From the sequence record PZ445451.1: a stretch of DNA of 64,000 nucleotides. One strand, 5' to 3'. Positions 7,821-12,840 of the stretch are shown piece after piece. Source of the DNA: a phage. The notes under the pieces were generated by a model. The model was given only the letters and a program-made list of their open reading frames with translations. It was not told the origin of the DNA and searched no databases. The position numbers and the translations under genes were made by a program. How positions within the stretch are numbered: the first letter of the stretch is position 1; each line of letters opens with the position of its first letter.

Positions 7821-8414
7821 TTAAATCTTAAATTCTTCGTTGTTAAGTGAATCCAGTGTACGTACTTCTGGTTCTTTGGGGATGAAAACGTCTTTTACAA
7901 AGCGGAACATAGGGAAACGTTCTGCCATTTTACGGACGTGTGCTTCTTTACCTGTGTAGCGGTGATTAATAGTACAAATATTAGTTTTCAGCGCAAATTC
8001 AAAATCTGGATGATATACATAATTTTGACCATCCCAGTAACACAGGCAAATAGCTACGTCAAAGTTCCATACGATTTCACTGCGTACACCTTCTTCCATG
8101 ATCATAAAGTTAAACTTAAGATCTTTATAGTATGCTTCAAATACCCATTTCAAATGTGGTAGTTCGGCATAAGTGTGTTCTGTTTGCTTAGTAAGTTGTT
8201 TAACATTACGTGCACCAACACCCAACATCAAAAATTTCTCTACTAGTACGAGTGTATTGTGGTTAGGCATACGCAAGTAAATATCAATATCTTGCGCAGG
8301 TTTCTCTAATCGCCAATCACGTACAGCGCCGCCAGCTACAATTGCAAACGGATCTACCAGTTGGCACATACGTAATACTTCTAAAGCTCGTACTTTTTGA
8401 TCTTCAATATTCAT
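7821..8414 (-). CDS. Pol-beta-type nucleotidyltransferase, CCA-adding/poly(A)-polymerase head-like
   Basis: AIVAGGAVRDW...DIDIY matches the GGxVRD...DxD head-domain signature; start moved to internal ATG 7 nt after AGGAG. Confidence 0.55.
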   Translation of the reverse strand: MNIEDQKVRALEVLRMCQLVDPFAIVAGGAVRDWRLEKPAQDIDIYLRMPNHNTLVLVEKFLMLGVGARNVKQLTKQTEHTYAELPHLKWVFEAYYKDLKFNFMIMEEGVRSEIVWNFDVAICLCYWDGQNYVYHPDFEFALKTNICTINHRYTGKEAHVRKMAERFPMFRFVKDVFIPKEPEVRTLDSLNNEEFKI

Positions 8415-8422
8415 ATTTTCTC

Positions 8423-9010
8423 CTATCGTTTCCACTCTTTGTGTTGTTCTACATGCTCAAGCATTTCATTATATAGTGCTTTAAGATGTGGAACAACTCT
8501 TTCATCTTCAGTTTCAAAGAATTTTGTAAGCTGCTCTGCTTTAGCTTTCAACCAGCAAAGATGCGCTTCAATTTCAGTATTAAAACGTCCCAGCGTTTTT
8601 ATGCGACTGTCTACTTTTATATTGGCTTTGTATTTATTACGATCTTTTTCGTAACTACATCCCACCATAGTCCCATGAGATCTTTTACTTACTCTATAAG
8701 CTAAGAACTTATTAAGATCTCCTGTTACTAAAAGACAGGTATTGGGAGAGTAAACTCTCCCTCCTATAATATCTTTATCAAGTTCTAAGTTTTCCCAGTC
8801 ATCCCAAGTTTGCAACCAGGAATAGAAATTGGAGAACAACTTCCATTCTTCACAAACTGTCACCCCATTATAACAAGGATCACGTTCTTGTTGACAAGGG
8901 GAGTAACACCTCCCCAACATAGACATCCATTTCATATAAGCAGGGTGCATAGTTCCTCTAGGAGATCTTACAGTAAAATCTCCATCAAAAATACCATGAC
9001 CATATACCAT
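8423..9010 (-). CDS. Putative freestanding homing-endonuclease-like / AP2-type DNA-binding protein
   Basis: YMKWMSMLGRCY...YNGVTVCEEWKLFSNFYSW resembles the N-terminal DNA-binding module of phage HNH/AP2 homing endonucleases; AAGGAG RBS. Confidence 0.4.
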   Translation of the reverse strand: MVYGHGIFDGDFTVRSPRGTMHPAYMKWMSMLGRCYSPCQQERDPCYNGVTVCEEWKLFSNFYSWLQTWDDWENLELDKDIIGGRVYSPNTCLLVTGDLNKFLAYRVSKRSHGTMVGCSYEKDRNKYKANIKVDSRIKTLGRFNTEIEAHLCWLKAKAEQLTKFFETEDERVVPHLKALYNEMLEHVEQHKEWKR

Positions 9011-9039: not shown

Positions 9040-12000
9040 CTAATGACAACTGGCCCATGAGTTACCAACATCGTACCCAGCAGTGAGAGGTACATTAAGA
9101 TTGTAATACTCACCAGCTTTATTAACAGCGATAGATGCTAATTCTCCAGCACGACTGTAGGCTGTAAACCAACCACCTTTCGGAGATTCATGTACGTTCG
9201 CCCAAATCTTGCCAGTACGTTTCTCTTCCTCTTCTTTCCAGGCATTAACTTTATCCAAACATTCTTTATCAATTTTCTTTTGTTCTTCTGGATCATCAAC
9301 TTGAGTCCAACCTAAAGATTCTTTAGAGAACCATTTAAAATGCACCAGATCACGAGTTACTTCAAGTTGTGCTTCATCGTGATATGCAATCATTTGTTGA
9401 ACGAATGACTTATTTTTCCAGTCATCAACAAAAAAGTCAACAGCTAATCCTTCTTCTTCGATAAGATCGTCGTAGATAACCATTGCTCTTTTTGCACAAA
9501 TAACACCACCACTCTGGAACAGAGAGTTAAGTATTGCGTGTGCAGATCGTGTAGGTACTTTTCTACCATCAATACCGAGAATGTATTTCTTACCTGTTTT
9601 AACCCAAAAGTCATGCAGACGTTCTTTAAGAAGCGCAAGAGGTTTTGCAGCTTCCCAGAAAGCATCGTATACAAGCTGTCCTGTATACATATCACTACCT
9701 ATAGTTTTTGCTACTTTTGCAGCTTGAGCACCATAAGTAATACCATACTTAACAGATTTAGCAGGGCTTCGTTCAAACTTACGACCAATAGTGTCAGAAA
9801 TACGTCGAGCCATCATTGTATGAACATCATTAGGTTTTTCCAATAATAGAGCATTACAATATTCGTGTGGTTCCTGCTCGTACCGCCAACAATTCCCTGT
9901 AATCGTGATGCAGTCTTTCTGACGCATAACCCATGTACCGAGTTCTGTTTGTGGACACCAAACATCTTCTACACCCCATTCTTCAATAGTCAGACTTTGA
10001 ACAGGGATGTGAGAGCGGTTAGCCAACGTTGCCACTTTTACTTTCTGGTCTTTCGTATTGAAGGCTACAGAAATATTACCCCCATGAACCAGGTATGAGG
10101 CAGTTAAGGCTGCTTCAAAAAGTTCTCCTGGGTTCTGCGCCCAGCGCCAAACAGGTTTTTGTTTATGTTTGTGCCAGTAACCATCCGCAATCAAAAAACC
10201 TTCCAAGAAAGCCACACGCTCGGCATGAGACATATTAACTACACGTTCTACCCACGGAACATCCCATTTACCTTGTTGAACAGAAGTTAAACTATTTACT
10301 TGATCTTGTTCCATGTTAAATGGAGCATTACAAATAATGTTATCTCCTGTGCAAAGCTCGGCAGTTGTTCTGACTTTAGGCACATAAGTATTCCCTGTAC
10401 TACGAGTATTAACATACCAACGGTGATCTGCTGTTGCACGATAAGTATGGGATTTTCCTTTAATCTCAAACGTCTTACTATTTTTATAGAAGACCTTACC
10501 TTTTACTTTAGTCCATTCTTTAAGTCCTGTTTCTGGGTTATATCCTAAGATTTCATCCCCTTCTTGTAGATCGTGATAACCAACCCAACCTTTACGGGTT
10601 AGTGCTTGTGCATCCATAGGTACACAGTAGTGTGATTCTATTTTTGCCTCAAGAGAATCAAAGTCATAACCAATTTGGAAGTATTTTGGAACTTCTACAC
10701 CAAATAAGTTACGCATTTCATATCCGTACAGAGATGTTACACGTGGGATATTTGCTACTAACCTATGTTTCATACGAGATGTAGCTGCATCACACGTTGC
10801 AGCAGGAGTTGGTATACGACCATCAGCCCTTACTGCTGCCAGATAACCTTTATCGTAATCCTCTTCATCTTCTTCCCAATCAGCACCACCACCTAGAATA
10901 GAGTTCCTACGGTGTTTATACGTAAGATACTGCACAATCTGCGTAGCATAAGGAAACTTTTCACCCAGTGCTTCCAAGTTAGGACAAATATCTTTCTCTT
11001 GCCCTTTTGTAAAGGAAGGGTTCGTAAGCACTTTAACACCACGACCTTTAGCTTTAGCAATACGATCTCTTAGTTTCCATTCCAAAGTTTCTGGTGTGCA
11101 CTCCAGATGATCACATCTGTCCTGGCAGAAGTTAGATGCTAACGTTTGATCAACATAGTCACGAATAGCTTTCTCCATTTGTGCTTCATCTTTCTTAATC
11201 TTAGTGCCAGATTTAAGAGTGATATCTTTATCTTTGTATTCAGATGGACTCCAACCTAAACCAACTAACCAGTTTTTAATATGTGTAGTGTCGTCTAAAG
11301 TAGCAGGTACTGTAGGATCACAAATAGGTTCTTCTGCTGGAATAGGGAGTTTAAACTCTTTACCTAAAGCAAATAACCACCAACCATCTTCTTTTTGTAC
11401 AAGTTCACCAGAATGTTTCTCTGCAAACTTTATCATGTTACTTGAAGGTTCACCATTCTTTTTAAACTGTAGTTTAGGTGGAATGAATGATTTCAAATAA
11501 CCTTTGGTAGCAGGTTTAGGAGGTAGCACAGGTTCTGCCTCTAAACGACATGCTTCCATTCGAGCATCCAGATCACGAATATTATCTTCTGCTTGTTTCA
11601 TATTGAAAGCAAAGCCACGGTGCTCTTGACGTGTAATAATATCAGCTACACGTTGTTCTAAGTTAAATGGTTCAGACCACTTATTATAATCACCCCACTC
11701 TTCCATCAAATAACGGAACACTGCGGTGTTAGCTTTGTTATCGTAAATACAGTAATACAGCATATCTGCTGCAAATGTTTTAAATCTTTCAGTTTCAGGG
11801 ATGTTTTTTCTAAAATCAATTTTAACATCCCCTCCAGCTTTCTTAGATAACTCTGCCAGACTATGACCACCGAAGCGATCAGGGTTTAGTGTCTTACTTA
11901 AGATCATAGTATCACAAATTTCAATGTTACTATTACCCCAAGTATTGTACTTAATACTGTAGTTGAGTTTAAAAAATAATTTAATTGCCAGTAAGTCGAA

Positions 12001-12354
12001 GTTAATGATGTTGTGTCCAACTACTTTGGTAATTTTATAGTTTGAATTACCTTTAAATTTACCTGTTCCATTTACAAAATCAGGAAAATCTTTAAGAGGG
12101 AAATGGGTATATTCTAAATGCTCATATTCCTCCAATCGGTATTCATACTTTCCGTCAGTCTCAATATACGGACGACCATCGAAAAGATATTTATCACCAT
12201 CATGGAAAGCAATAATCTCTCCAGTATCATGACTTTCGCACACAATACAGTGCATTGCAAAACTATCTTTTAAACGATATGGACTTGCCAAGTAATCTAC
12301 ACTTTCGTCATTAAGCAAGTTGTTACTTTCAATGTCGAAAGTAAAAGCTCCCAT
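9040..12354 (-). CDS. DNA polymerase family A with 3'-5' exonuclease domain, interrupted by an intein
   Basis: Motif A GYDFDSLEAKIESHY, motif B RSPAKSVKYGITYG, motif C AYHDE; AAGGAGG RBS; 245-residue insert between motifs A and B. Confidence 0.9.
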   Translation of the reverse strand: MGAFTFDIESNNLLNDESVDYLASPYRLKDSFAMHCIVCESHDTGEIIAFHDGDKYLFDGRPYIETDGKYEYRLEEYEHLEYTHFPLKDFPDFVNGTGKFKGNSNYKITKVVGHNIINFDLLAIKLFFKLNYSIKYNTWGNSNIEICDTMILSKTLNPDRFGGHSLAELSKKAGGDVKIDFRKNIPETERFKTFAADMLYYCIYDNKANTAVFRYLMEEWGDYNKWSEPFNLEQRVADIITRQEHRGFAFNMKQAEDNIRDLDARMEACRLEAEPVLPPKPATKGYLKSFIPPKLQFKKNGEPSSNMIKFAEKHSGELVQKEDGWWLFALGKEFKLPIPAEEPICDPTVPATLDDTTHIKNWLVGLGWSPSEYKDKDITLKSGTKIKKDEAQMEKAIRDYVDQTLASNFCQDRCDHLECTPETLEWKLRDRIAKAKGRGVKVLTNPSFTKGQEKDICPNLEALGEKFPYATQIVQYLTYKHRRNSILGGGADWEEDEEDYDKGYLAAVRADGRIPTPAATCDAATSRMKHRLVANIPRVTSLYGYEMRNLFGVEVPKYFQIGYDFDSLEAKIESHYCVPMDAQALTRKGWVGYHDLQEGDEILGYNPETGLKEWTKVKGKVFYKNSKTFEIKGKSHTYRATADHRWYVNTRSTGNTYVPKVRTTAELCTGDNIICNAPFNMEQDQVNSLTSVQQGKWDVPWVERVVNMSHAERVAFLEGFLIADGYWHKHKQKPVWRWAQNPGELFEAALTASYLVHGGNISVAFNTKDQKVKVATLANRSHIPVQSLTIEEWGVEDVWCPQTELGTWVMRQKDCITITGNCWRYEQEPHEYCNALLLEKPNDVHTMMARRISDTIGRKFERSPAKSVKYGITYGAQAAKVAKTIGSDMYTGQLVYDAFWEAAKPLALLKERLHDFWVKTGKKYILGIDGRKVPTRSAHAILNSLFQSGGVICAKRAMVIYDDLIEEEGLAVDFFVDDWKNKSFVQQMIAYHDEAQLEVTRDLVHFKWFSKESLGWTQVDDPEEQKKIDKECLDKVNAWKEEEEKRTGKIWANVHESPKGGWFTAYSRAGELASIAVNKAGEYYNLNVPLTAGYDVGNSWASCH
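9892..10626 (-). mobile_element. Intein in DNA polymerase with LAGLIDADG-like homing-endonuclease motif
   Basis: Starts with Cys right after motif A, TADH block B, LEGFLIADGY motif, ends ...ITITGN followed by Cys; removal restores normal A-to-B spacing. Confidence 0.65.
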
Positions 12355-12444: not shown

Positions 12445-12840
12445 TTATTTATTGTCAGCACTTAGTTGTACTTTAATAAGGCAATTAGGGACACCATTGG
12501 TATTTCTCAAGCCTACACGGTCAATTTTAACTGTTCCTGTTAAGCCACTAAAAGTGGAAACAATGTTATTAATGTTTTCATCCTTACTAGCGATATCAAG
12601 AACAACTTTATCACTAACATTTTTCAGCATACGATCTACAAGCTCTCCCACAAAACCACTGGTAGTTTGAATGAGAAGGTATAGGCAACCATCCTCAAAC
12701 CACAAATGTTCACCATAAGCATAACCGTATGGTTCTAATTCTAATCCGTCTTGAAATTTAAACTTAGCAATAGTTTTCGTATAATCATATGCTAAAGCAG
12801 AAGGGCATACCCCATAGAGGATGTTTTCGTTGTCTTTCAT
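12445..12840 (-). CDS. Hypothetical protein
   Basis: Start moved to internal ATG (MKDNENILYG) preceded by AAGGAG, which removes overlap with primase-helicase. Confidence 0.5.
   Translation of the reverse strand: MKDNENILYGVCPSALAYDYTKTIAKFKFQDGLELEPYGYAYGEHLWFEDGCLYLLIQTTSGFVGELVDRMLKNVSDKVVLDIASKDENINNIVSTFSGLTGTVKIDRVGLRNTNGVPNCLIKVQLSADNK

Follow-up and report, generated by a model that had tools for sequence, protein, structure and literature searches.

A phage origin has been proposed for the class 3 inteins. These are defined by a Trp-Cys-Thr triplet (PMC2807308) and by the required absence of an N-terminal nucleophile (PMC2807308, PMC7891396), and three triplet-bearing inteins with Ser1 or Cys1 were listed by Tori et al. 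2010 (PMC2807308). Fast splicing is documented for the AceL NrdHF intein, although it has a histidine at neither F:13 nor G:6 (PMC7891396), and in the Bethlehem RDF intein a penultimate Gly supports splicing, the G316H change leading to accumulation of the precursor (PMC5050341). LAGLIDADG enzymes with a single motif act as homodimers on pseudo-palindromic sites (PMC2655683). Inteins were identified through comparative annotation in the BASEL paper (PMC8594841). The subject of the present analysis is a 245-amino acid insert in the family A DNA polymerase encoded in 64,000 nucleotides (nt) of phage DNA (PZ445451.1; this whole stretch is called the window, and all positions refer to it). It is very probably a splicing-competent and at least recently mobile intein which interrupts the essential polymerase of a phi92-like coliphage, and its half-size LAGLIDADG module would most likely serve, in pairs, as a homing nuclease.

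The polymerase gene, its insert and the intein-free alleles

The polymerase gene and its parts are as follows.

9040–12354, minus strand: intein-containing family A DNA polymerase precursor, an open reading frame (ORF) of 1104 amino acids with a Pfam DNA_pol_A match
10627–12354, minus strand: N-extein, precursor residues 1–576, ending in motif A (from translation and comparison with the intein-less allele)
10627–10665, minus strand: motif A, DFDSLEAKIESHY, directly before the insert
9892–10626, minus strand: intein of 245 amino acids, Cys1...Gly244-Asn245 (from the translation CVPMDAQALT...DCITITGN, exact presence and absence, AlphaFold2 and Foldseek)
9040–9891, minus strand: C-extein, from Cys+1 and including motif B (from the Pfam DNA_pol_A match at precursor residues 839–1002)
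9730–9771, minus strand: motif B, RSPAKSVKYGITYG, in the C-extein

The insert is in frame, 10 residues past the motif A aspartate and 41 ahead of motif B, and the Cys+1 codon (TGT, 9889–9891) follows Asn245 directly. An earlier note on this DNA, made from its letters alone, had described a 245-residue insert between motifs A and B of a family A polymerase; translation and the positions of the motifs confirm this, and every motif that it named was found, namely Cys1, T65-A-D-H68, LEGFLIADGY (residues 141–150), G244-N245 and the Cys+1 that follows. The mature polymerase is predicted to contain 859 amino acids.

The polymerase gene is 100% identical to that of Escherichia phage PaulScherrer (Bas60, MZ501100.1, genus Justusliebigvirus; locus bas60_0044) and 99.2% identical to that of phi92. 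In MZ501100.1 the coding sequence is labelled 'intein-containing DNA polymerase precursor' and carries two kinds of mat_peptide feature, for polymerase and for intein; the intein of PaulScherrer is already known, since the element is annotated for exactly this genome. Phage SD2 (PQ821640.1) is annotated likewise, as an intein-containing precursor with mat_peptide features. Neither annotation describes a class, a motif or an endonuclease. In most other records with the same intein, those of phi92, PD06 and ESCO5 included, the gene is named just 'DNA polymerase I' or 'hypothetical protein', the label being simply that of a polymerase because the standard profile libraries miss this intein family. 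One recent paper stated that no inteins had been reported in coliphages (PMC11162368); in contrast, the PaulScherrer intein has been annotated in GenBank since 2021, and 35 phage records, of about 122 related ones, carry the element.

The insert is absent, precisely, from close relatives. In the Justusliebigvirus phages ALITA, muut, alia, EmilieFrey and others the polymerase gene is approximately 99% identical and exactly 735 nt shorter. The ALITA polymerase, of 859 amino acids, lacks exactly these 735 nt and reads ...ESHY-C-WRYEQ... across the site. The same precise presence and absence recurs in the sister genus Phapecoctavirus, with the intein in ESCO5 and 21 other records, and with phAPEC8, ESCO13 and many others intein-free at 97–98% identity. 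The intein-free polymerase site is ...GAATCACACTACTGT|TGGCGGTACGAGCAGG..., and the Pfam DNA_pol_A match runs unbroken across it in the intein-free protein (residues 498–757), whereas in the precursor only the part past the insert is matched. The alignment to intein-free homologs that the earlier note had proposed as a check thus confirms the insertion point by the exact 735-nt absence. In one further record, that of vB_EcoM_01 (PP129558.1, a partial genome), an apparently different insert at the intein site proved to be an assembly artefact composed of a gap of Ns and a duplicated segment; this allele is intein-free.

Since a TGT codon stands at both junctions, the insertion or deletion taken alone leaves the boundaries ambiguous by one codon. 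The intein mat_peptide of MZ501100.1 corresponds to window positions 9889–10623, is shifted by one codon and would read Val...Cys. Relatives with Thr+1 at the same polymerase site, such as P0030 (EAHY|CVPMD...TITGN|TYKYDNGEY), identify Cys1...Asn245 as the chemically correct boundaries; the positions 9892–10626 proposed in the earlier note are therefore in the right frame, and the GenBank feature should move by one codon.

The intein was modelled with AlphaFold2 from a 31-sequence alignment, giving a predicted local distance difference test score (pLDDT) of 94.8 and a predicted template modelling score (pTM) of 0.91. The best Foldseek matches of the model are endonuclease-bearing inteins, TliVMA (E 7e-9, template modelling (TM) score 0.74), PI-SceI and PI-PfuI, with probability 1.00, and the next are mini-inteins, including the class 3 inteins AceL NrdHF and MchDnaB1, and Ssp DnaB. 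At E<=1e-3 there were 39 PDB matches, 32 of them inteins and 7 other Hint-fold relatives (hedgehog autoprocessing domains and bacterial intein-like domains). A search of PDB sequences with the single intein sequence gave E values of 0.3 or worse, and the best value for the family profile was only 2e-5 (Spl DnaX, NrdJ-1), with no special affinity to class 3 inteins. In profile libraries, Hint, Intein_splicing or LAGLIDADG_3 was matched in only 3 of 31 relatives. Because these libraries miss the insert, its identification rests on the empty alleles, the conserved blocks and the structure.

On these grounds it is close to certain that the insert at 9892–10626 is an intein. The intein with a LAGLIDADG-type module which the earlier note had read from the letters is borne out by intein-less alleles at 97–99% identity and by a confidently predicted Hint plus LAGLIDADG fold. 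That the insert might instead be an integral, non-splicing domain of the polymerase, or a dead intein which is tolerated, is extremely unlikely, given the intein-free alleles at this level of identity in both genera, the Hint fold, the invariance of the splicing residues, a ratio of nonsynonymous to synonymous substitution rates (dN/dS) of 0.022 for the whole intein, and the place of the insertion in the active site, after motif A and before motif B. Splicing itself is highly likely, on the basis of strong purifying selection and of the propagation of intein-bearing phages on laboratory hosts (listed as E. coli K-12 for PaulScherrer and K92 for phi92): since the insert parts motif A from motif B in the sole polymerase gene of these phages, they would have to splice the product in order to propagate.

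The intein family and its splicing residues

A profile built from the first homologs was searched against 1.84 billion cluster representatives and matched 8508 proteins at E<=1e-3, of which 3385 also passed E<=1e-10 and 591 passed E<=1e-30. The intein belongs to a very large and mostly phage-borne family. Conserved residues were counted in the 158 best proteins, which hold 164 complete inteins, and blocks F and G and the junction over 157 aligned sequences.

10624–10626, minus strand: Cys1, block A:1, the standard N-terminal nucleophile; Cys in 164/164
10417–10434, minus strand: block B, T65-A-D-H68-R-W70 (B:7, B:10, B:12); Thr in 164/164, His in 164/164, Trp in 160/164
9919–9966, minus strand: block F, DVWCPQTELGTWVMRQ; Cys224 (F:4, 9955–9957) in 157/157, and Trp232 at F:13
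9889–9912, minus strand: block G, C-I-T-I-T243-G244-N245, plus Cys+1; Thr at G:5 in 156/157, Gly at G:6 in 156/157, Asn at G:7 in 157/157

The traits of the family are thus Cys1, T-x-x-H-x-W, a cysteine at F:4 and a T-G-N end. Position F:13, where the usual residue is His, is Trp or Phe in all 157 sequences, and the residue at +1 is Ser in 83, Thr in 42 and Cys in 32. The penultimate His (G:6), which is common but not obligatory in inteins, is replaced by Gly244. The earlier note had remarked on this terminal GN in place of HN as something that might affect splicing chemistry; the replacement is real, but it is no oddity, for a Gly-Asn end shared by 156 of 157 relatives is a hallmark of the family and not a defect of the PaulScherrer copy.

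A feature missing from that note is a complete class 3 triplet, Trp-Cys-Thr, formed by W70 (B:12), C224 (F:4) and T243 (G:5). The class 3 prototype MP-Be was recovered from Bethlehem gp11 with S62/H65/W67, C320 and T339-H340-N341/T+1, as in the published numbering (PMC2807308). The hidden Markov model of the family places its S62/H65/W67 onto T65/H68/W70, the Cys-to-Asn spacing is 21 in both (Cys320–Asn341 in MP-Be), and F:13 falls in the same register, being Trp232 here and His328 in MP-Be. With Trp232 at F:13 and Gly244 at G:6, both of the histidines that usually assist Asn cyclisation are absent. The residues at the class 1 assisting positions (Asp F:4, His F:13, His G:6) are accordingly Cys224, Trp232 and Gly244; position 1, which in class 3 is neither Cys, Ser nor Thr, is Cys in all 164 of the family inteins counted.

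Splicing by the class 3 route is consistent with the full triplet in the register and spacing of MP-Be, with AceL NrdHF and MchDnaB1 among the best mini-intein structural matches, with the lack of His at F:13 and G:6 as in AceL NrdHF (PMC7891396), and with the three triplet inteins already listed as keeping Ser1 or Cys1 (PMC2807308). It nevertheless seems doubtful, since Cys1 is found in 164/164 sequences although class 3 is defined without an N-terminal nucleophile (PMC2807308, PMC7891396), the family profile has Spl DnaX and NrdJ-1 and not the solved class 3 inteins as its best matches, and the Cys+1 of the PaulScherrer copy is rare for class 3 (PMC5222942). Both Cys1 and the cysteine at F:4 are invariant and therefore both are probably needed. 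Judged from the sequence, splicing may begin at Cys1 (class 1), at Cys224 (class 3), or proceed as a relay between them.

The following series of steps is proposed. The 1104-amino acid precursor would be translated and its Hint domain would fold, whereupon block B (T65, H68, W70) would activate the Tyr(-1)-Cys1 peptide bond to give a thioester. The N-extein would be transferred to Cys+1, cyclisation of Asn245 would free the 245-amino acid intein without the usual histidines at F:13 and G:6, and an S-to-N acyl shift would restore a normal Tyr-Cys bond. The product would be an 859-amino acid polymerase with the length and the junction (...ESHY-C-WRYEQ...) of the intein-free alleles. Two excised inteins would then pair via the LAGLIDADG helix to form a homing nuclease, which would cut the intein-free polymerase alleles of co-infecting relatives, and recombinational repair would copy the intein in.

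The earlier note had suggested a regulatory checkpoint. In such a scheme splicing would take place under certain conditions only, governed for instance by a reversible disulfide between two of Cys1, Cys224 and Cys+1, and the intein would act as a post-translational switch of replication. In the predicted active site these three cysteines come together, Cys1 and Cys224 being invariant across the family, and redox control via the F:4 cysteine is described for the mycobacterial DnaB class 3 intein (PMC6195587). We consider this unlikely, in that closely related phages manage without the intein, so that no essential regulatory role is needed, and most of the family have Ser or Thr at +1.

Inteins of this family sit in the kinds of protein that are characteristic of phages. 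Family A polymerases are interrupted at three or more different positions (the motif A site described here, motif B and the TGR...PNxQ motif); the other hosts include DUF6321-type proteins and Toprim primases, as well as Mre11-like phosphoesterases and proteins resembling tape measures or lysins. Some 45 of the top-ranking matches to the family lie in DUF6321-type metagenomic proteins of unknown function (P0002–P0005, P0010–P0018 and others), at the invariant site ...KFDVYP|SAYANGWAAKWYK..., which by these matches appears to be a strongly preferred second home of the family beside the family A polymerases. Two inteins of the same family are present in each of the proteins P0014, P0019, P0022, P0023, P0069, P0118, P0142 and P0154; P0014 and P0019 are Mre11-like phosphoesterases, and P0022 and P0023 tape-measure or lysin-like proteins. 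The intein of P0006 is a natural deletion derivative of that of P0002, without the LAGLIDADG module.

The LAGLIDADG half-domain and mobility of the intein

Within the intein the putative nuclease module is made up of the following.

10024–10254, minus strand: single LAGLIDADG half-domain, intein residues ~125–201 (from the AlphaFold2 secondary structure and the matches of the isolated module)
10180–10206, minus strand: LEGFLIADG motif, including Asp148 (LAGLIDADG helix ending D148-G149)

In the AlphaFold2 model the module folds as helix-strand-strand-helix-strand-strand (helix 134–148, strands 149–152 and 159–164, helix 168–180, strands 185–189 and 197–201). Modelled alone it has a pLDDT of 93.8 and matches the LAGLIDADG domains of PI-SceI, I-DmoI and I-CeuI with probability 0.99–1.00; its sequence aligns with the second of the motifs in two-motif enzymes. 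The LAGLIDADG-like motif reported in the earlier note is therefore present with its catalytic Asp, but it belongs to a single half-domain and not to a full two-motif enzyme. In 150 of about 154 relatives the motif keeps its acidic residue, as Asp or Glu, and in 152 the Gly that follows; together with a dN/dS of 0.04 for the module, this retention indicates that the module is maintained by selection. Exactly one motif was found in 112/126 mid-size relatives (228–270 amino acids). In larger relatives (~320–370 amino acids) a second motif may be present, some 90 residues from the first, and the mini forms lack the motif altogether. With one motif per intein, dimerisation would be required for nuclease activity.

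The history of the intein differs from that of the gene which it interrupts. The inteins of PaulScherrer and ESCO5 share 91.7% identity at the nucleotide level (97.6% at the amino acid level), as compared with 72.7% and 78.5% nucleotide identity in the exteins, and the synonymous divergence (dS) is 0.48 in the intein as against 4.2 and 1.8 in the exteins. An intein that is 100% identical occurs in eight records, the exteins of which are 1–2% different. The footprint of a mobile element suspected in the earlier note is thus upheld by the disagreement between the intein and polymerase sequence trees, which suggests that the intein is mobile now or was so recently. The copy in Klebsiella phage KP13-16 has diverged to the same degree as the exteins around it, and it appears to fit an older or vertical inheritance. 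No copies of the intein were found in 5,426 complete E. coli genomes.

Comparison of the two genera revealed that the intein alleles are mosaic. In the Justusliebigvirus phages ESCO32, cardinal and UAB_1 there are 35–38 sites unlike PaulScherrer, all of them equal to the Phapecoctavirus allele, and the 3' 75–85% of the intein has 1–4 mismatches to that allele. The recently exchanged tract starts within intein nt 105–185 and ends at nt 734, the stretch equal to the Phapecoctavirus allele beginning at nt 170–185. In ESCO32 the Justusliebigvirus type is regained at the first informative extein site (+8), which places the end of the tract at most 9 nt from the C-terminal junction; likewise, UAB_1 and ESCO5 differ at one position in intein nt 170–735 and at 25 in the first 125 nt of the C-extein. 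The first 104 nt of the intein are genus-specific (22 differences), being as diverged between the genera as the exteins. When six intein-bearing and six intein-free Justusliebigvirus genes were compared, no single-nucleotide polymorphism (SNP) in the exteins tracked intein status, and hence no signature of co-conversion was seen.

Homing by a dimer of half-LAGLIDADG modules would be the best available account of an exchange between genera that is precise to the junction, and is considered the most likely one. Several observations weigh against the overall reading of a splicing intein with such a nuclease. The start of the exchanged tract inside the intein is not explained by simple homing into an empty site. 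The empty target site has no pseudo-palindromic symmetry above background, the best value being 5/9, which some 7% of the background centres attain. The literature searched contained no account of a natural LAGLIDADG intein with a single motif. Pfam, NCBIfam and PHROGs gave no intein or Hint match for the insert, the sole match being LAGLIDADG_3 at E=0.084. Finally, no published experiment on the PaulScherrer intein was found, and splicing, its route and the nuclease activity are inferred here.

Some of these observations would suit a splicing intein in which the half module is no nuclease but a structural or DNA-binding remnant, inherited vertically and spread only passively, by the general recombination of phages during co-infection. 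A lone LAGLIDADG motif, a target site without palindromic signal and a tract that starts within the intein would all accord with it; the SNP patterns of the exteins indicate rampant recombination in these phages anyway, and module-less mini versions of the family exist (P0006, P0008, P0009). Although possible, this explanation is the less probable one, as it leaves unexplained the acidic residue and Gly retained in nearly all relatives (150 and 152 of about 154), the low dN/dS of the module, and an architecture of ~245 amino acids kept in about 125/164 diverse relatives. Moreover, the tract exchanged between the genera stops so close to the splice junction although the flanks are only ~79% identical, and so sharp an end would be hard to obtain by general homologous recombination.

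Two neighbouring genes deserve mention.

8423–9010, minus strand: free-standing HNH homing-endonuclease gene (phrog_953, E=7e-75), directly downstream of the polymerase
12445–12840, minus strand: ORF of 131 amino acids between the polymerase and the primase-helicase (phrog_22634, unknown function)

The HNH gene overlaps the start of a nucleotidyltransferase ORF (7821–8435). Its presence varies among relatives, and it is a second mobile element of the replication module. Its position next to the polymerase, its membership of a homing-endonuclease family and its variable presence would accord with mobilisation of the intein in trans, that is, with collaborative homing. The two elements are not associated, however: of the 35 records with the intein 11 have the HNH gene, and of the 87 without it 28 do (odds ratio 0.97, p=1.0), phi92 has the intein without the HNH gene, and alia and EmilieFrey have the HNH gene without the intein. 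Collaborative homing was therefore rejected as very unlikely. The product of the 131-amino acid ORF is called 'endonuclease' in ALITA and 'potential Endonuclease/Hydrolase' in phi92, without Pfam support.

Significance and comparison with known systems

For the phage genome the finding carries little weight: what interrupts this essential replication gene is a selfish element that had already been recognised correctly, and close relatives live without it. It is possibly new that one family unites Cys1 with the Trp-Cys-Thr triplet and a Gly-Asn end while lacking His at F:13; the half-size nuclease, the size of the family and its invisibility to standard profile libraries are possibly new as well. 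As a bolder and rather improbable proposal, the intein would represent a very large, uncharacterised family, for the most part carried by phages, with a hybrid class 1/3 active site, either an ancestor or intermediate of class 3 or a two-cysteine relay, and would carry the first natural intein nuclease built from a single LAGLIDADG half-domain, working in pairs. The hundreds to thousands of diverse relatives make it possible to test whether the class 3 active site arose before the loss of the N-terminal nucleophile, and the family is equally suited to asking how Asn cyclisation proceeds without either assisting histidine. The PaulScherrer intein is compact (245 amino acids), has a half-size nuclease module and comes from a phage that grows readily on E. 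coli and has natural partners without the intein; it would also make a convenient system for the study of homing and splicing.

A separate observation concerns the host labels of related records. Several (e.g. MG065650.1, 'Campylobacter phage B15') are labelled as Campylobacter phages and are 97% identical to the polymerase genes of E. coli Phapecoctavirus; mislabelling or contamination is probable.

Among described inteins, the class 3 prototype MP-Be, the 'DnaB'/terminase intein of mycobacteriophage Bethlehem, resembles the PaulScherrer intein in the register of the triplet, in being phage-borne and in having a LAGLIDADG insert (PMC2807308). It differs in that the PaulScherrer intein has an invariant Cys1, Gly at G:6, Trp at F:13 and Cys+1, and in that MP-Be has two LAGLIDADG motifs where the PaulScherrer intein has one. 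The split class 3 intein AceL NrdHF (PDB 6zgq; TM 0.77 normalised to target) likewise lacks both histidines and nevertheless splices efficiently (PMC7891396), but it is split, has Ala1 and Met at B:12, and carries no endonuclease module. The intein of Bethlehem gp51 (RDF) and other mycobacteriophage class 1 inteins with a penultimate residue other than His (Kelley et al. 2016, PMC5050341) provide a further parallel; the gp51 intein is phage-borne and has Cys1 and a penultimate Gly in common with ours, and differs in its host protein and in its intein lineage, a Trp-Cys-Thr triplet not being reported for it.

With respect to the nuclease, PI-SceI, PI-PfuI and TliVMA, the top Foldseek matches (E 7e-9 to 1e-5), are likewise built of a Hint splicing domain into which a LAGLIDADG module is inserted, and the point of insertion in the topology is the same. 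They have two motifs and act as monomers, and PI-SceI has an extra DNA-recognition region besides, whereas the PaulScherrer intein has the equivalent of the second half-domain only. In having one LAGLIDADG motif per chain it is like the homodimeric I-CreI, I-MsoI and I-CeuI (PMC2655683), the last of which is also a structural match of the isolated module (probability 0.99). These enzymes are free-standing, intron-encoded proteins of ~150–210 amino acids with pseudo-palindromic sites; the PaulScherrer module, in contrast, is ~80–90 amino acids long, lies within an intein and has a presumed target without clear symmetry.

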